Assembly: GCA_038131655.1 (NCBI GenBank)
Contig: JAYPPT010000002.1
Coordinates: 52,517 to 116,516 of the forward strand
Length of the DNA: 64,000 nt
Source: Alphaproteobacteria bacterium
GTDB taxonomy: Bacteria > Pseudomonadota > Alphaproteobacteria > SMXQ01
Direction: 5' to 3'
Shown: piece by piece, positions 41,071 through 58,356 of the stretch
How positions within the stretch are numbered: position 1 is the stretch's first letter
Layout: every line of letters begins with the position of its first letter
The notes under the pieces: generated by a model
Told to the model about the DNA's origin: nothing
The model's database searches: none
The model's input: only the letters and a program-made list of their open reading frames with translations
Translations under genes and position numbers: made by a program

Positions 41071-42237
41071 ATGAGCGTCGTGCTGGACCAAGCCGATGTG
41101 CTGCCCGTTCTTGCTCCCCTGGTGGCGGGCAAGGCGCCTGCGGACACGCGTGTGGTCGTCGCTATGTCGGGCGGCGTCGATTCGTCGGCGACGGCGGCGT
41201 GGCTGCACGCGCTCGGCTACGATGTGATCGGCATCACGCTTCAGCTTTACGATCATGGTCAGGCGGTGGGGCGCAAGGGTGCTTGCTGCGCCGGGCAGGA
41301 TATCCACGATGCCCGTGACGTTGCCGCTGGGCTTGGTATTCCGCATTACGTGCTCGACTACGAAAGCCGTTTCCGCGATCAGGTGATGGACGATTTCGCT
41401 GATGCCTACCTGCGCGGGGAAACACCGATCCCCTGCGTGCGCTGTAACCAGACGGTGAAGTTCCGCGACCTGCTGGCGACGGCCCGCGAACTGGGCGCGG
41501 ATGTCTTGGCCACCGGCCATTATGCGCGCCGCGAGGAAGGTGCCGCCGGCCCCGAACTGCGCCGCGCCGCCGATGACGGGCGCGACCAGAGCTATTTCCT
41601 GTTCACCACCACCCGCGACCAGCTCGATCTGCTGCGCTTCCCCCTGGGCGGGCTGCCGGACAAGGCCGCGACCCGGGCGCTGGCCCAGCGCTTCGGCCTG
41701 CGCGTCGCCGACAAGCCCGACAGCCAGGACATCTGCTTCGTGCCCGATGGCGATTACGCGCGGGTGATCGAAAAGCTGCGCCCCGGCGCGGCGGAGCCGG
41801 GCGATATCGTGGATATGGAGGGCAATGTCCTGGGCCGCCACAAGGGCATCATTCATTACACCATCGGCCAGCGCCGGGGGCTCGGCATCGGCGGGCGCAC
41901 GGGCGGGGAGGACGATGCGCTTTATGTCATCCGCCTCGATGCCGATAGGCGCCGCGTCATCGTCGGCCCGCGTGCGGCGCTCGGCGTCGGCGCGATCACC
42001 CTGCGCGAGGTGAACTGGCTCGGCGATGCGCCCCTCGGCGCCCGGCCGGTGCCGGTCATGGTCAAGGTGCGCTCGACCCATCGCCCGGTGGCGGTGACCC
42101 TCGCGGCCACCGAAGATGGCGGCGCCCGGCTGGTGTTCGATCAGCCCGAGCCCGGCGTTTCGCCGGGCCAGGCGGCGGTTTTCTACGATGGTGACCGGGT
42201 ACTTGGCGGCGGCTGGATCGCGGCCACGGGCGGTTAA
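41071..42237 (+). CDS. mnmA: tRNA-specific 2-thiouridylase
   Basis: [13 protein letters not shown]-loop; C-terminus [13 protein letters not shown]. Confidence 0.9.
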
Positions 42238-42285: not shown

Positions 42286-42361
42286 GGCGGAGTAGCTCAG
42301 CTGGTTAGAGCAGTGGAATCATAATCCATGTGTCGGGGTTCAAATCCCTCCTCCGCTACCA
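42286..42361 (+). tRNA. tRNA-Met (anticodon CAT; elongator type, tRNA-Ile2 not excluded)
   Basis: 76-nt cloverleaf: acceptor GGCGGAG/CTCCGCT, D-arm GCTC..GAGC, anticodon stem GTGGA/TCCAT with loop ATCATAA, T-loop TTCAAAT, encoded CCA. Confidence 0.85.
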
Positions 42362-42587: not shown

Positions 42588-43010
42588 CTAGAGCGCGACC
42601 TGCTGCTGGCGGTCCTTCGTGAAGTAATCGCGATTATTCAATTGGCCCTTGCCGGCGATGACGATCTCGTCGCCCGGCTTCTTCACCTGGTAAAGCAGGG
42701 CGGGCGCTTCGCTTTCATTGTGCAGCTGATAATACTGCCCACCGGGAATCAGCACGCACATACCTTCTTCAAGGTGATGAACCTCCGGCTCCGCATCCTC
42801 GCTTTTCTTGGTTCGAACTGTCAGCTTACCTTTCAGGCATAAGAACGATTGTGACGTTCCCTTGTGGTAATGGAACTCGTTACGTCCGCCCGGTGAGTAA
42901 AGGTTAAGTGCGATCAGAAGATCCTCCTCCTTCGACAGCAGCTTGCGCTGGCGCGGGCGGTCTGGGTTCTGCATATCGATCGAATCGAAAATCCTGGTAA
43001 CCTGAGCCAT
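42588..43010 (-). CDS. Small cupin-domain protein
   Basis: Start MAQVTRIFDSIDM at 43010. Cupin motif ...NEFHYHKG...QSF. GC is lower than surrounding genes. Confidence 0.55.
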   Translation of the reverse strand: MAQVTRIFDSIDMQNPDRPRQRKLLSKEEDLLIALNLYSPGGRNEFHYHKGTSQSFLCLKGKLTVRTKKSEDAEPEVHHLEEGMCVLIPGGQYYQLHNESEAPALLYQVKKPGDEIVIAGKGQLNNRDYFTKDRQQQVAL

Positions 43011-43137
43011 GTCTGTTCCTCCATCGTTGGCGGCCTTTGCGGACTGTTGGTTGGAAGTGTAGCCGAATATACTCCCCTGAAAGGGCAAAAAGAAGGGGAG
43101 GGCTAGGCCCTCCCCATGATTGGTGCCATGGCTTGGG

Positions 43138-44391
43138 TTATTTGCAGTTGACTTCCTTTGCCTCGGCGCCGACGCGCAAGTAGACAAAAGTACAGGTCAT
43201 GCCTGGCTTGATATTCTTACGCTTGTTTTTTTTGCCGCCAATGGTGACCTTGGTGCGCGAACCGGAAACCTTGGCTGATACTTCCTTGCCCTCGTGCATC
43301 AGTGAGATCTTGCGACCACCTCTTTCGGTCTTGGTGACCTTGCCGGTGTGGTTGAGTATAGTGACTTTGGTCGTGACTTTGTTGGCATCGATGATCAGCT
43401 GCTTGACCTTAGGAGAAACATTCAGGGCCTCCTGGAATGCCTTGTCGACTTCCTCGCCGTAGCCCGCTTCGATGTCCCGGCCCTGGGCCTTGGCAGCCTT
43501 GCGTGCTTCCGGGTTTCCCAGTGCATACTTGTAGGCGGCACGGAGCGCCTCAAGACGGTCCGCCTTGATGCCCGGAGGTGCACCGGTCACCCGCCAGAAT
43601 TCACCGGCGAGGGTGGTCAGCTTGGCCAGTTGCAGGCCGTCTGGATCCTTTATCAGTTCATAGGCCGTGGGCACGTTCGGCAGGTCCGGATCCCGCTTGG
43701 TTGAATAGGTGGTGAGAATGCGGCCGCGGCCCTGCTTGTGGAAGTCGATATTGCTTTCGATCGACCCCATCATTACGTCGATTTCGCCGCGCATCATGGC
43801 AAGATGCGCGTCCGGTCCATCATAGCCCGGAATCATGCGGAACTTCAGGTTCATCGCGGCTTCCGACATCTTGGCGAAGACCCAGCGTCCCGAGCCCGGT
43901 CCACCGGTTGCCATTTTCAACGCCTTGCCCGCCGCGCGCATCTCGTCGATGCTTTTGTAAGGCAGCTTGCCGTTAACCATGATCAGCTGTGGCGAGCTCG
44001 AGGCCTTACCAAGGAAGTTCATTTTAGCGAGATCGTACTTGACGCCCTTCTTTTTCAGGATCTGGTTGAAGAACATCGCCGTGTTGAACGTGCCCATGGT
44101 TAGGCCGTCGGGCTTCGAATTGTAAATGAAGTTAGTGCCGATGATGTGGCCGGCGCCAGGCATATTGCGGACCACGAAGGTTGAGCCCTTCAGGTATTGG
44201 GACATGTACTTGGCAACCAGTCGGCCATAGAAGTCGAAACCGCCGCCGGCGCCGGTCGCGACGATATAGGTCGCGGTCTTTCCCTTGAAATAGGCGACGT
44301 CTTCCTTGGCTTTGGCGCTGTTCACTCCACCGAATCCGACCGCCGCGGCGAGTGTCACCGCGATGGCGATGGATGTCTTGCTGGGGTACAT
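43138..44391 (-). CDS. TctC/Bug-family periplasmic solute-binding protein with a conserved Cys-pair C-terminal extension (paralog A1)
   Basis: AGGAGG SD then MYPSKTSIAIAV signal peptide. Bug-type motifs ATGAGGGFDFYGR and FVVRNMPGAGHIIG. C-terminus ...SGSRTKVTIGGKKNKRKNIKPGMTCTFVYLRVGAEAKEVNCK. Confidence 0.7.
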   Translation of the reverse strand: MYPSKTSIAIAVTLAAAVGFGGVNSAKAKEDVAYFKGKTATYIVATGAGGGFDFYGRLVAKYMSQYLKGSTFVVRNMPGAGHIIGTNFIYNSKPDGLTMGTFNTAMFFNQILKKKGVKYDLAKMNFLGKASSSPQLIMVNGKLPYKSIDEMRAAGKALKMATGGPGSGRWVFAKMSEAAMNLKFRMIPGYDGPDAHLAMMRGEIDVMMGSIESNIDFHKQGRGRILTTYSTKRDPDLPNVPTAYELIKDPDGLQLAKLTTLAGEFWRVTGAPPGIKADRLEALRAAYKYALGNPEARKAAKAQGRDIEAGYGEEVDKAFQEALNVSPKVKQLIIDANKVTTKVTILNHTGKVTKTERGGRKISLMHEGKEVSAKVSGSRTKVTIGGKKNKRKNIKPGMTCTFVYLRVGAEAKEVNCK

Positions 44392-44588
44392 ACTGATGCC
44401 TCCTTTGACAGATGATTTGGGGATAGCGCCGGACCGGTCTTTGGACCGATTGTGGGCAGCAATTGACAGCCCGCGTCCTACTCGCCAAATTCTTTCGACG
44501 GTAACACGGGAGCAAACGGTGAGGCAAACCGTCCGTATCCCGCGGGAATTCTGTGAACAACCCGGCAAAAATAAAACAGGGGAAAAAA

Positions 44589-45830
44589 ATGAAAAAACGC
44601 CTTCAGGTAGAACGACGCACGCAGCGGTGGCAGGAACAGCGCTGGATTCTCGATGCGGTGATCGCCACCGTAGGTCCCGAATGGGACCAGGGCCGCATGT
44701 CCAAGGGCGCGCGAGCCGGATCAGAAGGTGCGGCGGCTTTCCGCACTGCATCATCGCGGATGAAGAGATTCAACGATATCGGTCCCGAATTTACCCGTCA
44801 GGGCCGGAAGGCGGAAGCTCGCGCAAAACAGTACGAGAAAGAAAAGCGCATGGTATCAGCGCGCGAGCAATATTTTATCGCCTCGCTTCTTTATGCATCG
44901 GCCCAGTGGCCTTATTTCGATTTCGACGACACCGTGGCAGAACTGGAAGAACGGATGAATGCGACGTTCGCCAAGTACTGTAAATACGCACCGCAGCCGA
45001 CACGCCGCGTCGAGATACCATTTGGTAAGGGCAAGACCCTTCCTGCGTATCTGCATTTGCCACGCAAGCCGGTAAGGGGTGAGCGCTTTCCGGTGACCCT
45101 GGTGACCGGCGGCATGGACGGCTCCAAGGAAAGCATGGTGTCAATGTACGGCGATCCGGCGTTGCAGCGCGGCTTCGCGGTATTGGCGCTGGACGGGCCG
45201 GGGCAGGGCGAATGCCCTGGCCGGGGTATCTACCTGACCCCGACCAACTTCGGCGATGCTGGTGCAGCTTGTGTTGATTGGCTGTGCGACCAGCCGGAGA
45301 TAGATCCGGACGGCGTCGTTATCCGCGGCTCCTCCTTCGGCACCTACTTCGGGACCCAGGCTGCAGCGGGGCTCGGCAACCGTATCAAGGGTGTCTGTGC
45401 CACTGGCATTTGCCAGGAACCGGGTGCGCATACCATCTTCAACATGGCGTCGCCCACCTTCAAGGTGCGCTTCATGTTCATGTGCGGCTTCGAGGACGAA
45501 GCCAAGTTCGACAAGTTCGTCCAAGGCTTCGACCTACGCAAGGTCGCAGCCAAGGTCAAATGTCCGTACATGATCGTGGCCGGTGAGGACGATCAGCTTT
45601 CCCCGGTGGAGCACACCTACAAGCTATTCGAGAAGATCAAGGCGCCGCGTCGCCTGGTGGTTTACGAAAGTGCGAACCATTCAATCAAGGGGGGACCAGC
45701 GGCTGCCAATGGCGAGAACCGGGAAACCATGATGATGGATTGGATGCTCGACCGGGTGACGGGCAAATCGATGAAATCCGAGCTCTGGTATATCGATTCT
45801 GCCGGGAAGGCCAACATTACCAGGTATTAG
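44589..45830 (+). CDS. Alpha/beta-hydrolase (DHPON-hydrolase/FrsA-like family)
   Basis: ~414 aa with the GSSFGTY nucleophile elbow. Family members include C-C bond hydrolases. Confidence 0.65.
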   Translation: MKKRLQVERRTQRWQEQRWILDAVIATVGPEWDQGRMSKGARAGSEGAAAFRTASSRMKRFNDIGPEFTRQGRKAEARAKQYEKEKRMVSAREQYFIASLLYASAQWPYFDFDDTVAELEERMNATFAKYCKYAPQPTRRVEIPFGKGKTLPAYLHLPRKPVRGERFPVTLVTGGMDGSKESMVSMYGDPALQRGFAVLALDGPGQGECPGRGIYLTPTNFGDAGAACVDWLCDQPEIDPDGVVIRGSSFGTYFGTQAAAGLGNRIKGVCATGICQEPGAHTIFNMASPTFKVRFMFMCGFEDEAKFDKFVQGFDLRKVAAKVKCPYMIVAGEDDQLSPVEHTYKLFEKIKAPRRLVVYESANHSIKGGPAAANGENRETMMMDWMLDRVTGKSMKSELWYIDSAGKANITRY

Positions 45831-45871
45831 GTAGTTGAAACCGGGGGCGAGCCTCCTGTTGGCGAAGCCGA

Positions 45872-46063
45872 TTGCAGAGGTGGGGCCGGGTGATCGTGAT
45901 CAGCAATGCAGGACGGGCGGTTTCGGCCAATGCCTTTGAGCCGCGCACCAAGGTTACCGTCGGCGGCAAACCGGCTAAGCGTTCGGCCCTCAAGCAGGGC
46001 GTGACCTGTACTTTCCACTATCCGAGCCCCGGCGCTGAGGCTGAGCAGATCATTTCCAAATAG
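45872..46063 (+). pseudogene. Stand-alone degenerate copy of the TctC-paralog C-terminal extension
   Basis: Encodes ...EPRTKVTVGGKPAKRSALKQGVTCTFHYPSPGAEAEQIISK. Nucleotide-level similarity to the 3' ends of the A-type paralogs; no upstream TctC domain; second Cys lost. Confidence 0.5.
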
Positions 46064-46092
46064 CCCGGTATCTATTAATTTTAGCGACTTAG

Positions 46093-46120
46093 GCGGGCCC
46101 GAAAGGCCCGCCCATCTTTC
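46093..46120 (+). terminator. Candidate terminator hairpin
   Basis: ggcgggcc-cgaaa-ggcccgcc followed by catctttc. Confidence 0.35.
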
Positions 46121-46257
46121 TGTCGGTCTCTGTCGCCTTGCGGCAGGAAGAGCTAGCGGTTAGTTTTTTGCCTTAGCCAGGGGTCCTAGCGCGCGAGATC
46201 AAGCAATAAAATGCGCGCAGTTGACGGGCGCTTGCCTCGATAAACAGGGAGCCAAGC

Positions 46258-47496
46258 ATGCACAGCATAAACACCAAGAGAATAGTATTGGGCCTCGCGG
46301 CCGGCATGGCCATGTCGTTGGCGGGGACCGCGGGGGCCACCGACAAAGGCAAGGCCTATTTCAACGGCAAGACGGTGGAATGGATCGTCGCCACGGCGCC
46401 CGGCGGCGGCCACGATTTCTGGGGGCGGCTGGTGGCGGGCTCGATGCAGAAGCATCTTCCCGGCTCGACCTTCGTGGTAAAGAACCGGCCCGGTGCCGGC
46501 CATGTTATCGGCGCCAACCTGATCTACAACGCCAAGCCCAACGGGCTGACCCTGGGCAATTTCACCACGGGATTGCTCTATTCGTCGCTGCTCAAGACCA
46601 AGGGTATCCGCTTCGACTTGGCCAAGATGTCGTGGCTCGGCAAGGTAACGTCCGAACGCCGCGTCCTGTCCGTGGGACAGAAATCCGAATTCAAGTCCTT
46701 TCAGGACATGATCGATTCCAAGCGGATCATTAAGTTCTCGGCCACCGGGGTGGGCTCCAACACCCATACGGAAGCCTTCCTGCTGGGCACGGCCTTCAAG
46801 ATCCCGTTCAGGATCATCACCGGCTACACCAGTTCTTCGGCGGCGCTGGCCATCCTGCGGGGTGAGATAGACGCCATGACCGGGGGCGAGGATTCGGCCG
46901 CGTCCTATGAGAAGGCCGGGCATATCCGCAACGTCATGATGATCGGCGCGGGCAAGCCCGGCGTTGTCGATGCCGCCGATTACGCCAAGACGCCGCTGGC
47001 CAAGTCCGTGGTCAGGCTGATGGGGGCCATGGGCACGTTGTCGCGCATCATGGCCGGCCCCCCGGCCATCCCGGCGGACCGCCTGGCGGCGCTGCGCACG
47101 GCGTTCCGCGAATCGCTCGAAAGCCCGTCGCTGCAGGCGGCGGCAAAAAAGGCGGGCCGCGGGATCGAGCCGGCCTATGGCGATGATGTCGGCCGCCTTG
47201 TCGCGGAACTGATGGACCAGCCGCCGGAGGTGGTGGCGATGCTCAATGAGCTGTCCAAGGTCCGGGTTGCAATGGTCAAGCACGAGGGCAAGGTCACCCA
47301 GACCAAGCGGGGCGGGAGGCAGGTATTCATCAGCCACAAGGGCAAGGAGGTCTGGGCCAAGATCTCCGGTTCGCGCACCAAGGTGACGGTCAATGGCAAG
47401 CCCGCCAAGCGCAAGGCGATCAAGGTGGGCATGACCTGCGCGTTTTCCTACCCGCGCGCCAATGCCGAGGCCAAGAAGGTTGACTGTAGAAAATAA
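46258..47496 (+). CDS. TctC/Bug-family binding protein with Cys-pair C-terminal extension (paralog A2)
   Basis: Signal peptide. Motifs ATAPGGGHDFWGR and FVVKNRPGAGHVIG. C-terminus ...SGSRTKVTVNGKPAKRKAIKVGMTCAFSYPRANAEAKKVDCRK. Confidence 0.75.
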   Translation: MHSINTKRIVLGLAAGMAMSLAGTAGATDKGKAYFNGKTVEWIVATAPGGGHDFWGRLVAGSMQKHLPGSTFVVKNRPGAGHVIGANLIYNAKPNGLTLGNFTTGLLYSSLLKTKGIRFDLAKMSWLGKVTSERRVLSVGQKSEFKSFQDMIDSKRIIKFSATGVGSNTHTEAFLLGTAFKIPFRIITGYTSSSAALAILRGEIDAMTGGEDSAASYEKAGHIRNVMMIGAGKPGVVDAADYAKTPLAKSVVRLMGAMGTLSRIMAGPPAIPADRLAALRTAFRESLESPSLQAAAKKAGRGIEPAYGDDVGRLVAELMDQPPEVVAMLNELSKVRVAMVKHEGKVTQTKRGGRQVFISHKGKEVWAKISGSRTKVTVNGKPAKRKAIKVGMTCAFSYPRANAEAKKVDCRK

Positions 47497-47699
47497 AATA
47501 AAATCATAACAGTTGGTTACATTCAACTTCTAAAGTTAATTCTTTGGATGAGCCGGGCCGGGTTTCCGGGGTTGAACCGACCCGGCCCAGCGGCTAGCCT
47601 TGGGCTCAATACAGGGAAAGACCTCGAATAATATAATATGCAACTGCGGTTTAAACGCATGTGTCAGGGGTCTTTCGGCACAAGAACTGGGAGACGAAA

Positions 47700-48938
47700 A
47701 TGAAACATCCTTCACAGAACTGGGCCGGCTACGCGATCGCGGCGGCGGCAGGACTGGCGCTTGCCGCGCCGGCGGTGGCGGCCGAAAAGGGCGCGGCTTA
47801 TTTCAAGGGCAAGACGGTCGAATGGATCGTTACCACGGCGCCGGGCGGTGGCCACGATTTCTGGGGCCGGTTGCTGTCCAACACCATGGAAAAGAAGCTG
47901 CCGGGCTCGACCTTCGTGGTCAAGAACCGGCCGGGTGCCGGGCATATCATCGGCGTCAACCTGATCTACAGTTCCACCCCCAACGGGCTGACGATGGGTA
48001 ATTTCACCACCGGTCTGGCCTATTCCCAGGTGTTGAAGAAGAAGGGCATCCGCTTCGATCTGGCCAAGATGTCGTGGCTCGGCAAGCTGGCGTCGGAGCC
48101 GCGCACCATGTCGGTGGCGAAGAATTCGCCCTTCAAGAATTTCGAAGACATTCTCAAGTCCAAGCGGGTGCTGAAGTTCTCGGCTTCCGGCGTGGGGTCC
48201 GGCTCCTATACGGACAGTTTCATGGTCGGCCAGGCTTTCGGCCTGCCGTACCGGATCATTACCGGCTATTCCGGCTCCCAGTCGGCGCTGGCGATGCTGC
48301 GCGGCGAAGTGGACATTCTCATGGGTAGCGAGGATTCGGCGCTGGCCTACCAGCGTGCCGGTCAGCTGCGCATCGTCATGCAGGTCGGTGGCGGCGTGAA
48401 AGGCGTGCAGGACGGCCGGGATTACGCCAACAACCCGCAGGCCAAGGCGGTGATGCGGCTGCTGTCGCAGATGGGGGCGCTGTCGCGCATTGCCGCCGGT
48501 CCGCCGAATATCCCCGCTGATCGCCTTGCGGCGCTGCGGGCCGCGTTCAAGGCTTCGACCGAGGATGCGGAATTCCGCGCCGCGGCCAAGCGCGCGGGGC
48601 GTTCGATCGAGCCCGCCTTCGGCGAGGACGTTCAGAAAATGATCGTCGCACTGATGGATCAGCCGCCGGAAATCGTGGACCTGCTCAAGAAGCTGTCCAC
48701 GGTCAAGGTGGACATGATCCAGCACGTCGGTCCGGTGACCCAGATCAAGCGGGGTGGGCGCCAGGTGTACATCTCCAACAAGGGCAAAGAGGTGTTCGCC
48801 AAGATTTCCGGTTCGCGCACCCGAGTGACCGTTGACAACAAGAAGGCCAAGAGAAAGGCCATCAAAAAAGGGATGACCTGCACCTTCACCTATCCTCGGG
48901 CGAATGCCGAGGCGAAGAAGGTGGATTGCAAGAGCTAG
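47700..48938 (+). CDS. TctC/Bug-family binding protein with Cys-pair C-terminal extension (paralog A3)
   Basis: ~75% identical to A2. C-terminus ...SGSRTRVTVDNKKAKRKAIKKGMTCTFTYPRANAEAKKVDCKS. Confidence 0.75.
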   Translation: MKHPSQNWAGYAIAAAAGLALAAPAVAAEKGAAYFKGKTVEWIVTTAPGGGHDFWGRLLSNTMEKKLPGSTFVVKNRPGAGHIIGVNLIYSSTPNGLTMGNFTTGLAYSQVLKKKGIRFDLAKMSWLGKLASEPRTMSVAKNSPFKNFEDILKSKRVLKFSASGVGSGSYTDSFMVGQAFGLPYRIITGYSGSQSALAMLRGEVDILMGSEDSALAYQRAGQLRIVMQVGGGVKGVQDGRDYANNPQAKAVMRLLSQMGALSRIAAGPPNIPADRLAALRAAFKASTEDAEFRAAAKRAGRSIEPAFGEDVQKMIVALMDQPPEIVDLLKKLSTVKVDMIQHVGPVTQIKRGGRQVYISNKGKEVFAKISGSRTRVTVDNKKAKRKAIKKGMTCTFTYPRANAEAKKVDCKS

Positions 48939-48974
48939 GTAGCTTGCGCGCTACCGCTTGGCGGGTTCCGCTTC

Positions 48975-48993
48975 GGCGGGCCCGCCTTTTTCT
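48975..48993 (+). terminator. Rho-independent terminator
   Basis: ggcggg/cccgcc followed by ttttt. Confidence 0.55.
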
Positions 48994-49125
48994 TTGCCAG
49001 GAGCCCGGAATCCGCCGGGCGGCGGGATCGCGGTTGATCGGGCACGGGGGCTCGGCTAGCATCCGGAGGCTAACTCGCGCCCTCGCAACCAAAAAAAACA
49101 AGCGCGGAAACTATGGGGAGATTTC

Positions 49126-49524
49126 ATGGCCAAGATTCGCCATTTTGCTATCGTTTCCACGGACCCGGGCAAGCTCGCGGATTTTTACGAGCGGGTCTTC
49201 GAGATGGAGGTCCTGCACCGCGCCGATAACGGCAGCGTGTTCATGACCGACGGTTATCTCAACCTCGCCATCTTGCTCAACAAGGCCGAGGGCAAGCCCA
49301 GTGGCCTGAATCATTTCGGCTTTCATGTCGAGGATTCGGCGGAAATCGCGCGCCGGCTTGAAAGCGAAGGCCTGCCGGGACCGGCGAAGCGCCCCGCCGA
49401 TCGCCATTACGCGCAGTTCCGGGCCTTTGACCCGGACGGCAACAATTTCGATCTTTCAGAAAACGGGTACGAAACCGTACGGCCCGATCGCATGTCGTCG
49501 GTCAAGGCAAAAACGCCGGCCTGA
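49126..49524 (+). CDS. VOC/glyoxalase-family protein
   Basis: 132 aa: MAKIRHFAIVSTDPGKLADFYERVFEM...LNHFGFHVED. Confidence 0.75.
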   Translation: MAKIRHFAIVSTDPGKLADFYERVFEMEVLHRADNGSVFMTDGYLNLAILLNKAEGKPSGLNHFGFHVEDSAEIARRLESEGLPGPAKRPADRHYAQFRAFDPDGNNFDLSENGYETVRPDRMSSVKAKTPA

Positions 49525-49559
49525 CGCATCCCACTTATTCCACGAACAGGGAGAGAGAT

Positions 49560-50855
49560 ATGAGCATCATTCAAAAACTGGCTTTCGCTGGTGTCGCGGC
49601 AGGAGCGTTCGCTATTGCCGCGCAGGCACCGGTGCAGGCTGCGGATTTTTATAAGGGCAAGACCATCAAGGTTGTCATCGGCTATAGCGCTGGCGGTGGT
49701 TACGATATCTACGCCCGCGCCGTTGCGCGTTATCTCGGTCGCTATGTGCCGGGCAATCCAAACGTCATTTCCCAGAATATGACCGGCGCGGGCAGTGTGC
49801 GCGCCGCCAATTATCTTTACGTTCAGGCGCCGAAGGACGGCACCCAGTTCGGTACGTTCTCTCGCGGGTTGCCCCTCCTGGCACTGACCGGTGCGGACAA
49901 GAACGTGCGTTTCGATCCGACCAAGTTCAAATGGATTGGCAGTACGTCGAGCTATGCCGATGACGCCTATGTGTTTACCGTGCGGCGCGACAAGGGCATC
50001 ACGTCGGTGCGTGAGTTGATGGGCAAGAATGCCAAGCTGGTTACCTTCGGTTCGACCAACTACGGTTCCACCGGGTTCGATGTTCCGCTGGTGCTGAAGG
50101 ATACGTTGGGCCTCAACATCAAGCTGGTTCATGGTTATCCCGGCGGTAGTGCCATCAACCTGGCGATCGAGCGCAAGGAAATGGATGGCCGTACCCAGGG
50201 CCTGTCGTCACTGAGTTCAATGGGCGGCGACTGGAAAAAGGACCGTATTGGGCTGGTGCAGTTCGCCCGCGGAAATGTCCGTCACCCGGACCTGGCTGAC
50301 GTGCCAACGGCGCGTGAACTTGCGACCCGCGAAGACGACCGCAGGCTGATCGACATGCTGGAAACGGCGTTCTTCATGGCGCGTCCGTTTGCCGCCCCTC
50401 CGGGGGTTCCCGTGGACCGCATCAAGGTCCTGCGTACCGCTTTCATGGCGGCCCAGAAAGATCCGAAGTACGTCAAGGACATGGGTAAGCTGGGCATGGA
50501 CATAAGCCCTAAAAGCGGCGAAGAGGTTGAACAGATCGTCGCCCGAATTATGAGCACGCCCAAGCCCTTGCTCGCGCGCTACAAGTCGATCATTGAAAAT
50601 CCTAAGGCGGAGCCACGCAAGGTCAACTGGATCCTGTCCGAAGGCACGATCAGCAAGGTCGGCAAGAAGGGCCGCATCCAGATCAAGGTCGCGGGCAAGT
50701 CCAAGGCCTTCAAGACCCGGATGCGCAAGGGCTATACCAAGATCACGGTCAACGGCAAGAAGGCCAAGATCAAGTCGGTCAAGGAAGGTATGACCTGTAA
50801 GATCTGGCACGAAGGGCCTAAGTCCACTGCCGGCAAGGCTGAATGCACCAAATAG
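49560..50855 (+). CDS. TctC/Bug-family binding protein with Cys-pair C-terminal extension (paralog B1)
   Basis: Signal peptide. Motifs GYSAGGGYDIYAR and NMTGAGSVRAANY. C-terminus ...KITVNGKKAKIKSVKEGMTCKIWHEGPKSTAGKAECTK. Confidence 0.75.
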   Translation: MSIIQKLAFAGVAAGAFAIAAQAPVQAADFYKGKTIKVVIGYSAGGGYDIYARAVARYLGRYVPGNPNVISQNMTGAGSVRAANYLYVQAPKDGTQFGTFSRGLPLLALTGADKNVRFDPTKFKWIGSTSSYADDAYVFTVRRDKGITSVRELMGKNAKLVTFGSTNYGSTGFDVPLVLKDTLGLNIKLVHGYPGGSAINLAIERKEMDGRTQGLSSLSSMGGDWKKDRIGLVQFARGNVRHPDLADVPTARELATREDDRRLIDMLETAFFMARPFAAPPGVPVDRIKVLRTAFMAAQKDPKYVKDMGKLGMDISPKSGEEVEQIVARIMSTPKPLLARYKSIIENPKAEPRKVNWILSEGTISKVGKKGRIQIKVAGKSKAFKTRMRKGYTKITVNGKKAKIKSVKEGMTCKIWHEGPKSTAGKAECTK

Positions 50856-50874
50856 ATTCGGTTCAGGGGCGAAG

Positions 50875-50899
50875 AGGCGGGACCGTGTTCCCGCCTTTT
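50875..50899 (+). terminator. Rho-independent terminator
   Basis: ggcggg-N8-cccgcc followed by ttttt. Confidence 0.55.
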
Positions 50900-51041
50900 T
50901 GTGCCCAAGGTGCGGTAAATATGCAACATTTTGTTGTATTGATCCCACATCCACAAGTCGTTAGCATCCGCCCAAGAAATCAAGAAAGGCCGCTGAACCT
51001 CACCCAAGAGGGCGGCGTTGATATTTGAAAGGCAGGGAAAT

Positions 51042-52340
51042 ATGTCAACCCATCTCCATTTGGGGCGAGTTTCGCTCGCCCTCGTGTTCGGGCTCGGGGT
51101 TGCCGCTCATGGCGCGGCGCAGGTCGGGGCCGCTGAATTGTACGAAGGCAAGACCGTCAAGGTGATGATCGGTTACGGGGCCGGCGGCGGCTACGATACT
51201 TATGGTCGCTTCGTCGCACGCAATATCGGCAGGCATTTGCCGGGCAAGCCCAGCACCATCACCCAGAACATGCCCGGCGCCGGTTCGATCGCCGTGGTCA
51301 ACTATATCTACAAGCAGGGTGCCAAGAATGGCACCGAGTTCGCCATTTTCGCCCGCTCCGCGCCGATTCTCGCGCTGGCCGGAAAAAGCAAGCAGGCCCG
51401 GTTCGATCCGCTGAAGCTCACCTGGGTCGGCAGCTCGTCGAGCTACAAGGGCGAGGCCTACATGATGATGGTGCGCAAGGACACGGGCATCACTTCCATC
51501 AACGACTTGCGCAAGGCCAAGAAGGAGCTTCGTTTCGCCGCAACCTCGTTTGGCTCCGACGGCACCGACGTGCCGATCGTGCTGCGCGAAGTCCTTGGCC
51601 TCAACATCGTGCCGCTGCGCGGTTATCCGGGCGGCAATTCGCTTTATCTCGCGGTCGAGCGCGGTGAAGCGCAGGGCCGCATGACGGGCTTTGCCTCAAT
51701 GAAGACGGCGCAGCCGGGATGGCTCAAGCCGGACGCCCCGGTGCGGCCGATCCTTCAGTTCGCCACCCAGACCCGCCTGCCGGAATTTCCCGACGTGCCG
51801 ACCGCACGCGAGATTGCGACCAAGGCGGATGACCTGGCCCTGATCGAGATGCTGGAAGCGCCGTTCTACATGGCCCGGCCTTTTGCCGCGCCGCCGGACC
51901 TGCCCGCGGAGATCACCAAGGCCCTGCGTACGGGCTTCATGAAGGCGCACCAGGATCCGGTCGCATTGAAGGAAGCGAAGAAGCTGCGTCTCGACCTGTC
52001 CCCCGCTGACGGTGCCGAAGTGCATAAGGTCATCGAGCGCCTGGCGGCGATGCCGAAGTCGCTTTACGACCGCTATAACGACATCCTGAAGGACCCGAAG
52101 TCGCCGATCCGCCAGGTCAAGTGGCAGATCGTGGAGGGTGAGCTTTCCAAGATTGCGAAGAAGGGCCGGGTCGAACTGGTCTCCGGCGGCAAGACCCACA
52201 AGGTCCGGGTCACCGGCGGCTACACCGAGCTTACGATCAAGGGCAAGGCCGCGAAGGACAAGGCCCTGAAGACCGGCATGACCTGCAAGGTCTGGTACGA
52301 AGGCAACGGCTCCGCCGCCGGCAAGATGGAATGCAAATAA
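51042..52340 (+). CDS. TctC/Bug-family binding protein with Cys-pair C-terminal extension (paralog B2)
   Basis: MSTHLHLGRVSLALVFG... Motifs GYGAGGGYDTYGR and NMPGAGSIAVVNY. C-terminus ...LTIKGKAAKDKALKTGMTCKVWYEGNGSAAGKMECK. Confidence 0.75.
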   Translation: MSTHLHLGRVSLALVFGLGVAAHGAAQVGAAELYEGKTVKVMIGYGAGGGYDTYGRFVARNIGRHLPGKPSTITQNMPGAGSIAVVNYIYKQGAKNGTEFAIFARSAPILALAGKSKQARFDPLKLTWVGSSSSYKGEAYMMMVRKDTGITSINDLRKAKKELRFAATSFGSDGTDVPIVLREVLGLNIVPLRGYPGGNSLYLAVERGEAQGRMTGFASMKTAQPGWLKPDAPVRPILQFATQTRLPEFPDVPTAREIATKADDLALIEMLEAPFYMARPFAAPPDLPAEITKALRTGFMKAHQDPVALKEAKKLRLDLSPADGAEVHKVIERLAAMPKSLYDRYNDILKDPKSPIRQVKWQIVEGELSKIAKKGRVELVSGGKTHKVRVTGGYTELTIKGKAAKDKALKTGMTCKVWYEGNGSAAGKMECK

Positions 52341-52373
52341 CCTTCTGATCGGCGATCGCCGAAACGACTGCTG

Positions 52374-52405
52374 GGGCGCGAATCTTCGGATTCGCGCTCT
52401 TTTTT
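52374..52405 (+). terminator. Rho-independent terminator
   Basis: gcgcgaatc-ttcg-gattcgcgc followed by tctttttt. Confidence 0.6.
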
Positions 52406-52594
52406 GGCCGAAAAGCCACTTTATAAAATATATGTTTTTGATAACCCATTGAAATTAAATAATCTTAAGTTCTTAAGACGCTCCATGCGTTGCCCCGGCC
52501 CAAGAAAGCTTGTTAGCATCTTCTTATTCATGGCGGAGGCGACAAGGCGCTGAAGAAACCCGGCCCCGCCGCACAGAAGAACTGGGAGACTGAA

Positions 52595-53908
52595 ATGAGT
52601 AAATTCCATCATCTGGCCCGCATTCCTGCCTTTGCGGGTGTCGCGGCCCTTGTCGGGGCTGCTGCCCTGGCGCTTCCCTCAAATCCGGCATCGGCGGAAA
52701 TGTTTTCCGGCAAGACCGTTCGCGTGCTTATCGGCTACGCCGCCGGTGGCGGCTACGACCGTTACGGTCGCCAGGTCGCGCGCCATATCGGCAAGTACCT
52801 GCCGGGCAAGCCCAATGTCGTCGCCGTGAATATGCCGGGCGCGGGCAGTTACAAGGTGGTCAACTACATCTACAACACTGCGCCGAAGGACGGCACGGAG
52901 TTCGCGATTTTTGCCCGCTCCGTGCCCATTCTTGCGTTTTCGGGCAAGTTCGACAAAACCCGCTTTGATCCGCTGAAGCTGACCTGGATCGGCACGTCGT
53001 CCAGCTACAAGGGCGAAGCCTATCTTGTGGTGGTGCGCAAGGACACCGGCGTGAAAAATATCGAGGATCTTCGCAAGATCAAGAAGACGGTAATGTTCTC
53101 GGCCACGGCTTTCGGTTCCGACGGTACCGACGTGCCGATCGTGCTGCGTGAAGTGCTTGGCCTCAATGTTCAGGCGTTGCGCGGTTACCCTGGCGGCAAC
53201 TCGCTTTACCTTGCGGTGGACCGTGGCGAGACCCAGGGACGCATGGTCGGCTACGCCTCGGTCAAGACGGCGCATCCCGAATGGCTGAAGCCGGACAGCC
53301 CGATCAATGTCGTGCTGCAATTCGCCACGCGCGAGCGTCTGCCCGCCTTCCCCAATGCGCCGACGGCTTACGAGCTTGCCCGCAACGACGCGGACCGTGC
53401 GTTGATCGACATGCTGGAAGCGCCGTTCTACATGGCGCGCCCGTTCGCGGGCCCGCCTGGCATGCCGGCGGCGAATACCTCGGCGGTGCGCGCGGCCTTC
53501 ATGGCGGCGCATGAGGACCCGGTGTACAAGAAGGAAGCGAAGAAGTTGCGCTTGCTCACCAGTCCCCAGGACGGTGCCACCGTGCAGAACCTGGTGGCCA
53601 AGCTCGGCAAGATGTCGCCGGACCTTTATGCGCGTTACACGCGAATCCTGAAGAACCCGGATTCCCCGGTCCGCGTCATCAAGTGGGTCAAGTTTTCCGG
53701 CAAGATCTCGAAAACCGGCAAGAAGGGCCGCTTCGTGGTCAAGACCGCCGAGGGCAAGAGCCACAAGCTGCGTGCCCGCGGCAGCTACACCAAGATCAAG
53801 ATCAACGGCAAGAAAGCCAAGTCAAAGGCGCTCAAGAAGGGCATGGAGTGCAATGTCTGGTGGGAAGGTCCGAAGACCACGCCCGGCCGGGTAGAGTGCA
53901 CGAAGTAA
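52595..53908 (+). CDS. TctC/Bug-family binding protein with Cys-pair C-terminal extension (paralog B3)
   Basis: Motifs GYAAGGGYDRYGR and NMPGAGSYKVVNY. C-terminus ...KIKINGKKAKSKALKKGMECNVWWEGPKTTPGRVECTK. Confidence 0.75.
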   Translation: MSKFHHLARIPAFAGVAALVGAAALALPSNPASAEMFSGKTVRVLIGYAAGGGYDRYGRQVARHIGKYLPGKPNVVAVNMPGAGSYKVVNYIYNTAPKDGTEFAIFARSVPILAFSGKFDKTRFDPLKLTWIGTSSSYKGEAYLVVVRKDTGVKNIEDLRKIKKTVMFSATAFGSDGTDVPIVLREVLGLNVQALRGYPGGNSLYLAVDRGETQGRMVGYASVKTAHPEWLKPDSPINVVLQFATRERLPAFPNAPTAYELARNDADRALIDMLEAPFYMARPFAGPPGMPAANTSAVRAAFMAAHEDPVYKKEAKKLRLLTSPQDGATVQNLVAKLGKMSPDLYARYTRILKNPDSPVRVIKWVKFSGKISKTGKKGRFVVKTAEGKSHKLRARGSYTKIKINGKKAKSKALKKGMECNVWWEGPKTTPGRVECTK

Positions 53909-53931
53909 CGTTCTGCGCTTGAAGTCATTGA

Positions 53932-53962
53932 GGGCGCGGGTTTTGGCCCGCGCCCTTTTTTT
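53932..53962. terminator. Bidirectional Rho-independent terminator between paralog B3 and the convergent UbiD-family gene
   Basis: gggcgcggg-ttttgg-cccgcgccc followed by ttttttt. Confidence 0.6.
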
Positions 53963-53964
53963 GC

Positions 53965-55416
53965 CTAGAGCCCGAACTTGTCGCGCACCTTGGCGCGCAT
54001 GTCGTCGGAGAACACGTTGACGGCCGGGAATTCGTCGCGCCAGCGGTAGGGGCGGCAGGCATCGATCAGGACCCGGTCCATGGTGTAGCCGTGGGGCGAG
54101 CGGTCATCGGGGGCGATGGCCGGATCGGCGGGCGATGTCCAGACGCTCTTGACGATATCCACGCCTTCACGCGGATTGCAGCGGGTGGCGACGGCCCAGA
54201 TGACATCGTTGATGTTCGACGCCTCGACATCGTCGTCGACGACGATGACGAACTTGCCGCCGTAGGCCCCGGCGCGGGCCGAAGTCGCGGCCAGCGCGGT
54301 CTGCTTGGCGTGCCCGGCATAGGACTGGCGGATGGAGACCACGGTGAAGGGACCGGATTGCCCGCCGTAGATATGACCCCAGACGCCGGTGATGCCGGGA
54401 ATGCCGGCGGCCTCAAGCTGGTCCCACAGTTGCGCCGCGCCCAGCGGCACGGAAATGTAATTGTTGGGCGGCTTCAGCGGCGGCACGCCGAGGATGATCG
54501 GCTCATCCCGCCAATAGGCCGCCTTGACGTGCATCAGCGGCACTTCGCCGGTGGTGGTGTCGGCGAAATAGCCGGGCCATTCGCCGAAGGGGCCTTCCTT
54601 GGGCAGCACCTCGTCGCTCGGCGGCGGCACCTCGCCCTCGATCACGATCTCGGCGCTGGCGGGAATAGGCAGGCCATAAAGCGGGCTGGCGACGGTTTCC
54701 ACCGGCGCGCCCTGCAGCCAGCCGGCGATTTCATATTCCTTCTCGCCGGGCGCGACGGGCAGTTGCGCGGCCAGGAAGATCGAGGTCGCGTGGCCGAAGC
54801 TGATGGCCACGGGGCAGGCTTCGCCCCGCGCGTGGTAGGCGTCCATCGCCAGGCGCCCGTGCTTGCCCTTGTTCATCTTGACGCTGATGCGGTCCTTGCC
54901 CTGCACCATGCAGCGGTAGGTGCCGATATTGACCTGGCCGCTGTCGGGGTCGCGGGTGATGACCGCCGATCCGGTGCCGAGATAGCGTCCGCCGTCGTGT
55001 TCGTGCCAGATGGGGGCGGGAAAGATGCCGAGATCAAGCGCCGCACCCTCGGCGCGGTTCTCGAACACCGGGCCGTCCTTGACCATCACCGGGGCGATGG
55101 GTTTCTTCTCGCGGATACGCTGGCGCCAGGCGTTGAGCAGGCCAACCCCGGAAAGCGTGTCCGGCAGTCCCAGGCTGGCGGCGGCGCGGGCGTGGGTGCG
55201 AAAGACGTTGGAAAAGACCCGGAAGCCCTTGGGGTAATCCTTGATCTCGTCGAACAGGAGGGCAGGGCCTTCTTCCTCGCCCAGGATTTCGGTCACGGCG
55301 CCGATTTCAAGTTTCCAGTCGGCGCCCTTGATTTCCCGCAGGTCGCCGCTCTCGCGCAGTTCCGCGATAAAGGCGCGCAGGTCGCTTTGCCGGTTGCTTC
55401 GGTTGTTCGCGCTCAT
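53965..55416 (-). CDS. UbiD-family (prFMN-dependent) decarboxylase
   Basis: Start at MSANNRS. ~483 aa. UbiD-type body (…PGYFADTTTGEVPLMHV…, …FVIVVDDDVE…). Confidence 0.8.
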   Translation of the reverse strand: MSANNRSNRQSDLRAFIAELRESGDLREIKGADWKLEIGAVTEILGEEEGPALLFDEIKDYPKGFRVFSNVFRTHARAAASLGLPDTLSGVGLLNAWRQRIREKKPIAPVMVKDGPVFENRAEGAALDLGIFPAPIWHEHDGGRYLGTGSAVITRDPDSGQVNIGTYRCMVQGKDRISVKMNKGKHGRLAMDAYHARGEACPVAISFGHATSIFLAAQLPVAPGEKEYEIAGWLQGAPVETVASPLYGLPIPASAEIVIEGEVPPPSDEVLPKEGPFGEWPGYFADTTTGEVPLMHVKAAYWRDEPIILGVPPLKPPNNYISVPLGAAQLWDQLEAAGIPGITGVWGHIYGGQSGPFTVVSIRQSYAGHAKQTALAATSARAGAYGGKFVIVVDDDVEASNINDVIWAVATRCNPREGVDIVKSVWTSPADPAIAPDDRSPHGYTMDRVLIDACRPYRWRDEFPAVNVFSDDMRAKVRDKFGL

Positions 55417-55447
55417 TGCATCCCCCCTGCACCGGCGCGTTCCCGCC

Positions 55448-56929
55448 TCAGCTCGAGGCGGGAAACACCAGCGATTTGATGACCACGGGTACCGCACCGG
55501 ACGAAGGAATAAGTTCGCCGATGTCGATGTAGTCGAATTCCTTGAGCTCGATCCCATCAATGGACACGACAGCATCGTCGAGCTGAATTTCCTCGGTCAT
55601 GTGCAGCCCGAGAAGGCCGCCGATATCGCTGTCGTTGACCATGATCAACGGATGGCCCTTTTCGCAATGCTTCTTCAGTCCGGCGACGACGCCGGTGCAG
55701 AAATCGTGCAGCCGCTTGAAGGTTGCCGAGCCGCCCCACTTGAACGAAACCGCCACCGGCTGCTCCGCGTCCGTCAGGTCTAGGCGTGTCAGCGATGCCT
55801 CGATTTCCTGGGCGACCTTGGCCGGGTCGATTTCCTCGGCCGTGAGGTCGATATCGGGCGCGATCACCGGCACGTTGCGAATAGGCACGGCGCTGGTCGG
55901 GTTGATGAAGATCGTGTTGCCCGACACCTGCACGGTGTATTGCGATGCGCCGATGACGGTCGCGCGAATGGTGGCCTTGGGTTCGTGAATCTTGATGCCG
56001 AGCGCATCCACCGCCTTGCGGATGGCCTTGGCTACGAAGGGGCCGAGGTCGCCAAAAGCTGTCGTCGCCTTGTCGTAGATGAATTCCGAAACCCCGCCGG
56101 AAAACGTGATCGCATCCACCTTGCCACGGTAGGTAAGCGGCGGCAGGCGCAGAAGCTTGATGGCTTCGGGCGTCATGTCTTTCAGGGTCACGACCTCCAT
56201 CAGACGCGCGATCATGCGATCGACAAATGCCTGAAGTTGGGTGTCCGTCGGCTTGACGCCGAATCCGATTTCAATGCCCGCTTCCTTGGCATAGGTATGG
56301 GCGGCGTCTTCGATGCGGTTGATCTTGCCGTCGTCGTCCATGGCCAGAAGCCGGGCGCCGACGTCAATGGCGGTGACTTCGTGAACCTTGCCGCCTTCAC
56401 AGATAGCGACCTTGGAGGTGCCGCCGCCGATATCGATGTTCATCACCACGCCATCGAGCGACGCAGACAACGCCACCGCGCCGGAACCATGGGCCGCCAT
56501 GGTGGTTTCCAGCCCGTCACCGGCCGAAACCGCGACGAACTTTCCGGCATCGGCCGCGAACAGGTCGGCAATGGCGCGGGCATTGCTGCGGCGCACGGCA
56601 ACGCCGGTGAGGATCAGGGCGCCGGTGTCGATATCCGACCGCTTGAGGCCGCTTTTCGTATAGCAGCCGTCAATGAATGATCCCAGCGCGTCCGAATCGA
56701 TCACCTCGCCGTCCACATAGGGGGTGAGCAGGATGTCGGATTCGGCCAGAATTTCGCGCTCTACGATCTTGTAGCGCGAGCCGATGCATTCCATGTGCAG
56801 GCGCGAGAAAACCAGGTGCGACGTGGACGAACCGATGTCCACGCCGACGCTGGTCAGGTCGAATTCACCTTCGTCAACGATGTGCCGCTCGGCGCTGGTG
56901 AACGCCGCGCGAATCTCTCTCTGTGCCAT
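55448..56929 (-). CDS. EutA-family ASKHA ATPase (ethanolamine ammonia-lyase reactivase-like)
   Basis: 493 aa. SVGVDIGSSTSHLVFSRL and NIDIGGGTSKVAI are collinear with EutA phosphate-binding motifs. Confidence 0.7.
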   Translation of the reverse strand: MAQREIRAAFTSAERHIVDEGEFDLTSVGVDIGSSTSHLVFSRLHMECIGSRYKIVEREILAESDILLTPYVDGEVIDSDALGSFIDGCYTKSGLKRSDIDTGALILTGVAVRRSNARAIADLFAADAGKFVAVSAGDGLETTMAAHGSGAVALSASLDGVVMNIDIGGGTSKVAICEGGKVHEVTAIDVGARLLAMDDDGKINRIEDAAHTYAKEAGIEIGFGVKPTDTQLQAFVDRMIARLMEVVTLKDMTPEAIKLLRLPPLTYRGKVDAITFSGGVSEFIYDKATTAFGDLGPFVAKAIRKAVDALGIKIHEPKATIRATVIGASQYTVQVSGNTIFINPTSAVPIRNVPVIAPDIDLTAEEIDPAKVAQEIEASLTRLDLTDAEQPVAVSFKWGGSATFKRLHDFCTGVVAGLKKHCEKGHPLIMVNDSDIGGLLGLHMTEEIQLDDAVVSIDGIELKEFDYIDIGELIPSSGAVPVVIKSLVFPASS

Positions 56930-56932
56930 ACG

Positions 56933-58162
56933 CTACTCGGCGGCTTTGTTCGGCGCGACGTAGAGCTCCGGCTCCATGCGGGACTTGCCGCCGTCTTCCG
57001 CGAGGGTCGATTCGAATTCCTTGCGGAGATACGGGTCTTCCATGTCGTAGGGAATGGCCGTGCCGCCGTCGCGGATATCGATGGCGCCGTAGTCGTTCAT
57101 CTGGCTGCCGGGCGCACCGGAGCGGGAGTTCTTGCCCGGATGGACGGGGCCGAACCACGCGGTCAGGCGCAGCGGGCCGGACGACACGCCGAAGTGCTGG
57201 TGATACCACTCGCCGCCCATGGGCGCGGCGGTGACCATGCCCACCGGCTCGTAATCCTGGCGCATAACCTCGGCGGCCTTGCCGTCCTTCCATGGCGTCG
57301 GGCCAAGGCGGTCGGGCCAAGTGTAAGTGTAGCCCTTGCCCTTGAGGCAGATCAGCACCGCCGCCGAACCGTGGGCGTGGGCCTTCGAATAGCGGCCGGT
57401 TTCATGCTGGGCGATCCACAGGTAGAAATTCTGGCGCGCCATGTGCGGCTCGATCCGGCGATAGCCCGGCGAGCGACGGTTATCCAGCGGCAGTTCGCAG
57501 TTGATGACATCGGGCAGGATGTTGGTCTGCTTCATCGCCAGGCCGCGAATGGGATCGGCGAAGATGTCGTCGTTGGGCTTGTAGTAGTCCTCGGCGTTCG
57601 GATCGAAGCGGTCGCGGAAGGCGTAGGGGCAGTTGAAGATGAAATCCGCGTTGCGGTAGGTGTTGAACGCTTCCGGCGCGAGCGAGCCGCCGAGCAGCTT
57701 TGCCGGCTGCGACGACGCGTTGATCAGGCGGTACTTGGCGTTCAGCGGAATGGCGAACATCGAACCGGCCTGCCATTCGAACACGTGCTTTTTCGTTTCG
57801 TCGCCGTCTTCCCAGACCTCGGTGGTGCCGCGGCCTTCGATCACCAGGAACTGCTGTTCGTAGATGTGCTTGACCGCGTTGGTCGCCCCGGCACCGGGAA
57901 CTTCCAGCACGAACGATCCCCACAGGCCTTCGGTGCCCCAAAGCTGGATGAAAGTGCCGCGCCCGCCGTAGAACTTCCAGTCGCCGAGCGGCAGATCCTG
58001 GCAGCGCTGCACGCCGAGGCCGCGGAAGCACGGGATGCACTGGGCTTCCATCCAGTCGTCATAAGGCAGATTGGGCCGTTCGAAGGTGCCGAAGCCGGAC
58101 TTCTTCTTGTTGTCCGTCGGTTCGGTCCAGTGGATGTGTTCATCGGGCATGTCGTGCGGCAT
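56933..58162 (-). CDS. Bicupin protein (gentisate/ring-cleaving dioxygenase-like)
   Basis: 409 aa with two cupin modules (…HAHGSAAVLICLKGKGYT… and …EWYHQHFG…). It lies 3 nt upstream of the EutA-like gene, suggesting an operon. Confidence 0.55.
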   Translation of the reverse strand: MPHDMPDEHIHWTEPTDNKKKSGFGTFERPNLPYDDWMEAQCIPCFRGLGVQRCQDLPLGDWKFYGGRGTFIQLWGTEGLWGSFVLEVPGAGATNAVKHIYEQQFLVIEGRGTTEVWEDGDETKKHVFEWQAGSMFAIPLNAKYRLINASSQPAKLLGGSLAPEAFNTYRNADFIFNCPYAFRDRFDPNAEDYYKPNDDIFADPIRGLAMKQTNILPDVINCELPLDNRRSPGYRRIEPHMARQNFYLWIAQHETGRYSKAHAHGSAAVLICLKGKGYTYTWPDRLGPTPWKDGKAAEVMRQDYEPVGMVTAAPMGGEWYHQHFGVSSGPLRLTAWFGPVHPGKNSRSGAPGSQMNDYGAIDIRDGGTAIPYDMEDPYLRKEFESTLAEDGGKSRMEPELYVAPNKAAE

Positions 58163-58356
58163 TGCAATCTCCTAGGGAGCCCCGTTTCGGGGTGGATGGA
58201 CTGAGTCGTGAAAAGGCGGGGCGGCGCCGCATTGGGGCGCCGCCGGTGGCGCGATTTTAGCCCCCGGATGGCCCGCCCGCAACCGCGCCCCTGCGGGTGC
58301 GGTTTGCGTTGCCGCCGCCATGGGCCATAATCGGCCAAAATCGGCAGGGGGCACCG

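Follow-up and report, generated by a model that had tools for sequence, protein, structure and literature searches.

Results

Organization of the locus

The window, by which we mean the whole 64,000-nucleotide stretch of an alphaproteobacterial contig (JAYPPT010000002.1) analyzed here, contains six full-length TctC-like paralogs, each with a C-terminal extension of ~75 amino acids. A1 lies on the reverse strand (43138-44391), and A2 (46258-47496), A3 (47661-48938), A4 (49560-50855), A5 (51018-52340) and A6 (52595-53908) lie on the forward strand. The extensions occupy 43141-43365 (-) in A1 and 47266-47493, 48708-48932, 50616-50852, 52110-52337 and 53672-53905 (+) in A2 through A6, respectively. 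A1-A3 score above the Pfam gathering score for TctC (A2, E 1.9e-14), A4 barely above it, and A5 and A6 below it. An FrsA-like alpha/beta hydrolase gene (44553-45830, +; Pfam PF06500, E 6.8e-15), which ends in a TAG codon at 45828-45830, is located between A1 and A2.

The element under study lies between the hydrolase gene and A2, the latter with its extension intact. As an earlier note on this DNA reported, a 63-codon ORF with the translation quoted there is present at 45872-46063 (+); it starts with TTG and stops with TAG (46061-46063). Its frame is open from 45839, just 3' of a TGA codon (45836-45838) that lies in the same frame within the spacer (45831-45871) separating it from the hydrolase stop codon. 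Nested in this ORF is a 57-codon ORF (45890-46063, +), which starts with GTG and is annotated publicly as a "hypothetical protein" of 57 amino acids. A purine-rich sequence, AGAGGTGG, occurs at 45876-45883, six bases 5' of the GTG. As 80 ORFs of at least 40 amino acids occur in 10 kb, a frame that stays open for 63 codons does not by itself point to a gene. Fusion of the hydrolase to the extension, or read-through between them, was considered and rejected, as the frames differ and both the TAG at 45828-45830 and the TGA at 45836-45838 are present in all three close genomes (see below).

Several other features of the neighborhood were recorded. Between 42588 and 58204, the paralogs are interspersed with catabolic-type genes, including cupins, the FrsA-like hydrolase, a glyoxalase/dioxygenase-fold gene (49126-49524), a UbiD-like decarboxylase gene (53965-55575) and an EutA-like gene (55448-56929). 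A tRNA-Met gene (42286-42361, +) separates mnmA (41071-42237) from the first gene of this binding-protein/catabolic array, a cupin gene, and may mark an island boundary. No TctA or TctB membrane component was matched among the proteins scanned in 42588-58204, which were drawn from part of that region; the binding proteins of the array thus appear to be "orphans". Orphan binding proteins are common in the TctC-like family. Long ORFs are also found antisense to A2 (46186-47526, -; 446 amino acids) and A3 (47712-48725, -; 337 amino acids). Their translations are of low complexity and rich in Arg, Gly and Ala, as is typical of GC-rich DNA, and they are almost certainly not genes.

Homology of the 63-codon ORF to the paralog extensions

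When the A2 extension was searched against the window (tblastn), it matched 45866-46051 with 50% identity over 62 amino acids (E 9e-16). The match covers positions 11-72 of the 76 positions of the A2 extension, which is nearly the whole of it. At the nucleotide level (blastn), 45831-46140 aligned with the 3' ends of A1 (43259-43135; 70.4% over 125 nt, E 3e-11), A2 (47372-47471; 71% over 100 nt, E 2e-8) and, weakly, A3 (48814-48895; 68% over 82 nt, E 0.005). Judged by these scores, the similarity to the paralog extensions is far above chance. An orthologue of the ORF product in a close genome (P0002) also matched a profile of the extension in a search of 1.84 billion proteins (E 2.4e-15). The seven sequences underlying that profile include the ORF itself, so this match is partly circular; the tblastn match (E 9e-16) is independent of it.

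The rest of a binding protein was sought as well. A TctC-like body used as a query (tblastn) found only the six full paralogs in the window. No body was detected near 45831-45871 in any frame, or under the hydrolase gene; the sole match was noise (E 4.6). A Pfam search of 45839-46060 returned no family at E <= 1, PF03401 (TctC) included, and NCBIfam gave no match to the ORF. The earlier note was therefore sound in stating that the ORF has no TctC body upstream, the upstream gene being the FrsA-like hydrolase, and that its DNA resembles the 3' ends of paralogs, the A3 alignment being the weak one. Its remark that the terminal Lys had been lost was mistaken, as the ...IISK terminus aligns with the ...NCK terminus of A1 and the Lys is present.

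A seventh paralog at the same site in related genomes

Orthologous loci were retrieved with the hydrolase as an anchor: six from alphaproteobacterial metagenome-assembled genomes (MAGs; L003-L008; hydrolase identity 82-85%) and four close ones from metagenomes (L009-L012). Hydrolase orthologues are 82-86% identical to that of the window in L003-L010 and L012, and 75% in L011. The metagenome scan on the hydrolase gave 80 loci, among which the array was common to L009-L012 only, and none of these contained a further remnant. In L004, L005, L007, L008 and L009, a full-length TctC-like paralog, here called X, lies 120-200 nt 3' of the hydrolase stop codon. L010 ends 268 nt past the hydrolase, where the 5' end of X is visible.

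The extension of X reads ...GREISIQRAGQEVSAKVSGSRTKITQAGKPAKRSIFKPGVICTITYARPGAEAQEIACQ, and the motifs AG, GKPAKRS, GV.CT and PGAEA.QI are common to it and the ORF in the window. The longest DNA alignments of the ORF are those with the 3' ends of X genes: 45883-46051 aligned with the 3' end of X in L008 (12455-12623) with 70% identity over 172 nt, and the 3' end of X in L005 gave 70.6% over 160 nt (both blastn). In a multiple alignment, homology to X begins at about 45872 of the window, where TTG CAG AGG TGG GGC CGG stands against GTG AAG AAC GAG GGC CGG. The spacer upstream (45831-45871) is ~34% identical to X in register, which is near random (counted base by base by hand). What the window retains would thus be the final ~63 codons of X and its stop codon, corresponding to strands beta2-beta6 of the OB-like extension (see below). 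Relative to L008, ~1.15 kb is missing, comprising the hydrolase-X spacer and the first ~346 of the 409 codons of X. The breakpoints of the deletion would be located in the 3' flank of the hydrolase gene, its left anchor, and at about codon 346 of X.

In a neighbor-joining tree of the extensions, the remnants (that of the window and the one in L006 described below) grouped with X in 126 of 200 bootstraps, with branches several times longer than those of the functional copies. This tree is not well resolved, and the assignment to X combines the 63% bootstrap value with position and collinearity. On these comparisons, the element appears to be the 3' end of X left in place, and not a copy of A1 or A3. 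The suggestion that it is a domain remnant, produced by deletion in a dynamic array of paralogs, is borne out by the full-length X at the same site in relatives. Its proposed derivation from A1/A3 is not, nor is illegitimate recombination between paralogs, as the breakpoints are those of a plain deletion.

A candidate terminator downstream of the remnant

A GC-rich hairpin followed by CATCTTTCTG is present at 46092-46112 (+), downstream of both the hydrolase gene and the remnant; the hairpin in the earlier note is thus real, but its coordinates are not 46093-46120. It has eight G-C pairs and a 5-nt loop (-18.7 kcal/mol, z -2.7), and the tail that follows the stem, CAUCUUUCUGU, contains 5 U in 8 and is interrupted. 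Hairpins with differing stem sequences occur in the window, L002, L012, L004, L005, L007 and L008 (-17 to -27 kcal/mol), and a degraded one in L006. The site is the same in these relatives: the hairpin follows full-length X in L004, L005, L007 and L008, and in L012 the hydrolase immediately precedes it. A search of Rfam with 45700-46400 gave no match at E <= 1. We infer that this predicted terminator is likely the old terminator of X, the sole part of it still working, and that it now ends transcription of the hydrolase gene.

Substitution pattern among three closely related genomes

When 5.8 billion proteins were searched with the remnant as a query, only three gene calls of 57 amino acids came back, P0001 (that of the window itself), P0002 and P0003, all of which begin at the GTG equivalent to 45890 in the window. 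This word-indexed search missed the paralogs too and is uninformative on distant relatives; an exhaustive profile search was used instead (see below). L001 and L002, the contigs of the P0002/P0003 variants, have the same gene order as the window and are 95.8-98.1% identical to it over 45831-46257.

The codon aligned with the GTG of the window is GAG in the X genes and in L006, and encodes the Glu of a conserved G-R-E. The GTG start codon therefore appears to be a derived, lineage-specific product of a GAG-to-GTG mutation. Such a change would have created a start codon, and for that reason gene callers would report a hypothetical protein of 57 amino acids. The penultimate residue is Ser (TCC) in the window, Phe (TTC) in L001 and Cys (TGC) in L002. 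Because every X gene, like the L006 remnant, has TGC or TGT at this position, Cys is taken from the alignment to be ancestral. Loss of the second Cys, as claimed in the earlier note, thus holds for the strain of the window but not in general.

Counts of substitutions (Nei-Gojobori) set the remnant apart from its neighbors. Between the window and L001, the remnant has five non-synonymous changes and one synonymous change (omega 1.7), and between the window and L002, eight and one (omega 2.4-2.8). The corresponding non-synonymous:synonymous counts are 1:6 and 2:8 for the hydrolase gene (omega 0.05-0.07), 5:19 for A1 (omega 0.08), 0:2 for A2 (omega 0.00) and 5:20 for A3 (omega 0.08), and the difference between the remnant and these neighboring genes (omega 0.00-0.08) is significant (Fisher p = 0.005 and 0.007). 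When the changes were polarized against X by hand, rather than by a tool, eight were non-synonymous and two synonymous. As this matches the neutral site ratio of 3:1, we read the pattern as neutral drift. Nucleotide divergence in the remnant (3.5-4.6%) is at or above the level of the flanking spacers (1-5.7%) and several times that of the coding neighbors (0.2-2%); among the three close genomes, no other stretch varies as much. These substitution data indicate that the remnant is without purifying selection on its protein and drifts like non-coding DNA.

As a separate observation, the divergence between the window and L001 is a mosaic (A2 0.16%, with a protein 100% identical in the two; A3 1.96%; remnant 3.45%; A2-A3 spacer 5.7%), which suggests recent recombination between strains inside the array.

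Remnants and losses in other lineages

A second remnant is found at the equivalent site in L006 (11276-11474), directly after the hydrolase stop codon. Together with its hairpin and spacer, it is collinear with the 3' end of X, the terminator and the spacer in L008 (66% over 372 nt, E 7e-14), and the L006 remnant and spacer also align with 45872-46257 of the window. Its homology to X starts within a few codons of the breakpoint in the window. Loss of 1 nt from a run of five Gs (11369-11373 region) disrupts its frame, and no start codon is present at the aligned site; addition of one G restores a frame of 66 codons ending in ...QIDCI. The run lies in a 2.5-Mb MAG contig, and the frameshift could be a homopolymer assembly error rather than a mutation.

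In a tree of the hydrolases, the window grouped with L012 in 181 of 200 bootstraps, and these two with L003 in 192 of 200, and L006 was unplaced. No remnant is present in L012, where a homologous hairpin lies ~15 nt after the hydrolase stop codon and is followed by the region upstream of A2 (the body of the A2 orthologue there is 86% identical). L003 and L011 also contain no remnant, and an A2-like gene comes straight after the hydrolase. Across lineages, X therefore appears to have been kept, truncated or wholly deleted, and the remnant appears dispensable because it is absent from L012 and L003, and frameshifted and without a start codon in L006. In L012, tblastn recovered the hydrolase orthologue (1286-2556) in two parts that overlap (residues 2-301 and 284-425), so that this metagenome contig must contain either a frameshift or a misassembly.

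The breakpoints in the window and L006 agree within a few codons, but L006 does not fall with the clade of the window in the hydrolase tree; the two remnants may go back to one ancestral deletion, our tentative reading, or to independent deletions. After frame correction of L006, the two remnants share 44% of their amino acids, and the differences at the three codon positions number 22, 23 and 34 of 61. Omega is ~0.33 in frame and ~1.4 in the other two frames, and the excess of third-position differences is marginal (p about 0.05, chi-square by hand). Nucleotide identity is 66% in the remnant and 68% in the adjacent non-coding spacer, compared with 55-56% in shuffled controls. The third-position excess may mean that some of the divergence predates the loss of an intact X, in which case X would have been truncated twice, at almost the same position. 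It may instead reflect a weak past coding constraint, or it may be a compositional legacy, in which formerly GC-rich third positions are relaxing to mutational equilibrium. All three readings leave the conclusion on the present-day element unchanged.

The C-terminal extension domain

The ~75-residue extension is matched by no Pfam or NCBIfam model. In A1-A3, the PF03401 match (54-77 bits, cut-off 27) ends at about residues 313-326 of 412-425, before the extension. A structure predicted by AlphaFold2 from seven sequences of the window is a six-strand barrel (pLDDT 86.8), with strands at model residues 8-18, 23-28, 31-36, 43-46, 61-66 and 75-79. Among small domains, the best Foldseek matches of the intact extension were to CusF (2vb2, 2qcp; TM 0.61-0.65), and OB domains of LysRS were also matched.

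The remnant lacks several parts of this domain. Its homology starts at about residue 19-21, past beta1 (8-18), so the complete beta1-beta6 barrel is not present, and the conserved pair of Cys residues (in beta5 and the C-terminal strand) is represented by Cys and then Ser in the window. No signal peptide was seen in the 57-residue product, which begins MIVISNAGRAVSANAFEPRT... and has no hydrophobic leader (judged by eye from the sequence). Proteins with the intact domain are secreted. Missing beta1, a signal peptide and one Cys, the product is predicted from the model to be unable to form the barrel or to reach the periplasm.

An exhaustive search of 1.84 billion proteins with the extension profile returned 433 clusters at E <= 1e-3, many of which are the C-termini of binding proteins of 410-460 amino acids. 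P0004 and P0015 are binding proteins with two tandem copies of the extension, and P0006, P0023 and P0105 are secreted proteins with 5-8 repeats and Pfam matches to CusF_Ec or DUF5666. These database architectures support, independently of the remnant, the view that the extension domain is modular. P0010 supports this view as well: it consists of a signal peptide, the first residues of the body and then the extension, the rest of the body having been deleted in frame, and is possibly a secreted stand-alone domain. P0009 (73 amino acids) and P0007 (122 amino acids) appear to be additional tails lacking a signal peptide, and the body may have been lost, with the tail kept, more than once.

Discussion

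The alignments, the position of X in relatives and the substitution pattern lead us to conclude that the 63-codon ORF is very probably a non-functional tail of a seventh paralog, X, left by a deletion with the old terminator behind it. The ancestral array would have been hydrolase - X - (A2) - A3..., in which a TctC-like gene, X, encoded a periplasmic binding protein with an OB-like extension. A deletion of ~1.15 kb, starting just beyond the stop codon of the hydrolase gene (by a few bases) and ending at about codon 346 of X, would have removed the promoter region of X, its signal peptide and the entire binding body, and spared the last ~63 codons, the stop codon and the terminator hairpin. 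The leftover would then have drifted like non-coding DNA, a GAG-to-GTG change would have provided a start codon along the way, and the hairpin would now terminate transcription of the hydrolase gene.

Certain features stand against reading the remnant as dead. The 63-codon frame is open in three genomes, in which the 57-codon ORF has the same length and is annotated as a gene, a Shine-Dalgarno-like AGAGGTGG precedes its GTG by six bases, and a hairpin follows it, so that the ORF may be translated. It could then be a real, expressed small protein of 57 or 63 amino acids, in which the freed extension domain has acquired a different function, perhaps in the cytoplasm, and evolves fast under diversifying selection; in formal terms, positive selection could give an omega above 1, and other extension-only ORFs (P0009 and P0010) exist in databases. 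We nevertheless consider this very unlikely. With a divergence of just 1-5% among the three genomes at the locus, the intactness of the frame carries little weight. Its start codon arose by a lineage-specific change in a Glu codon, and L006 has none; the barrel lacks beta1, and there is no signal peptide; and at the position of the disulfide Cys, three near-identical strains have Ser, Phe and Cys. In addition, the nearest relatives, L012 and L003, have lost the element, L006 carries it frameshifted, and the hand-polarized ratio of 8:2 is that of neutral sites. A specific form of this proposal, in which the tail was exapted through the new GTG and the Shine-Dalgarno-like sequence as a translated, 57-residue cytoplasmic peptide, co-transcribed with the hydrolase and under diversifying selection, has in our view a distinctly slim chance of being correct. 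If true, it would be a small protein caught being born from the remnant of a periplasmic OB domain.

The similarity of ~70% to the 3' ends of A1, A2 and A3, in an array that gains and loses copies between relatives, would also fit a secondary partial copy of one of these ends, made by illegitimate or unequal recombination between paralogs. Such an origin is very unlikely, as A1-A3 (68-71% in nucleotides, 48-52% in amino acids) are no closer in identity than X from other genomes, and align over shorter stretches (82-125 nt, compared with 160-172 nt for X). Moreover, the remnants group with X in the extension tree, the site is the position of X in relatives, and the downstream flank in L006 is collinear with that of X in L008. 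Recombination between two paralogs is expected to yield a chimeric full-length gene, not a tail without a body abutting the hydrolase. That the region is maintained for a separate non-coding role, for instance as a 3'UTR element or a small RNA, is scarcely credible. The position of the hairpin is conserved in most relatives, and the remnant and spacer exceed the shuffled background in the comparison of the window with L006; yet 45700-46400 resembles no Rfam family, L012 has kept the hairpin only, and no stretch varies more among the three close genomes than the remnant.

As a decayed tail of X, the remnant is an ordinary truncated pseudogene. Expansion of the TTT/Bug family of binding proteins by duplication has been described (PMC5994714; reviewed in PMC5812351), and neither pseudogenes nor truncation nor a C-terminal feature came up in a term search of the former article. 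Like other truncated bacterial pseudogenes in expanded paralog arrays, such as those of TTT/Bug proteins, the remnant is a 3' fragment made by a deletion, without promoter, signal peptide or body, that evolves neutrally and is variably present among relatives. Nothing essential differs; the breakpoint happens to lie near a domain boundary, and the fragment consequently resembles an independent domain and has been annotated as a gene of 57 amino acids. With TctC/Bug proteins (PF03401), whose domain is shared by X and A1-A3, the remnant has in common a homology to their C-terminal tails; it differs in having no PF03401 segment, the ~75-residue extension lying outside PF03401. The likeness of the extension to the small OB-fold barrels of CusF-like and DUF5666 proteins (PF11604, PF18914; 2vb2, 2qcp) consists of a predicted six-strand barrel with TM 0.61-0.65, together with the matches of multi-repeat relatives, found by the extension profile, to PF11604 or PF18914. 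In contrast, the identity is 14-16% with a Foldseek E of ~1e-3, the extension falls outside Pfam models, and the remnant is without beta1. The earlier note took the remnant as a demonstration that the extension is open to modular shuffling; a neutral and dispensable fragment lacking beta1, a signal peptide and one Cys does not demonstrate this.

For annotation, these results mean that a public "hypothetical protein" of 57 amino acids would be the decaying tail of a gene, and that a deletion near a domain boundary can imitate a stand-alone domain. For the family, they document birth-and-death turnover in an array of TctC-like binding proteins. The OB-like extension domain carried by these proteins is the more interesting object, and constitutes a separate finding.
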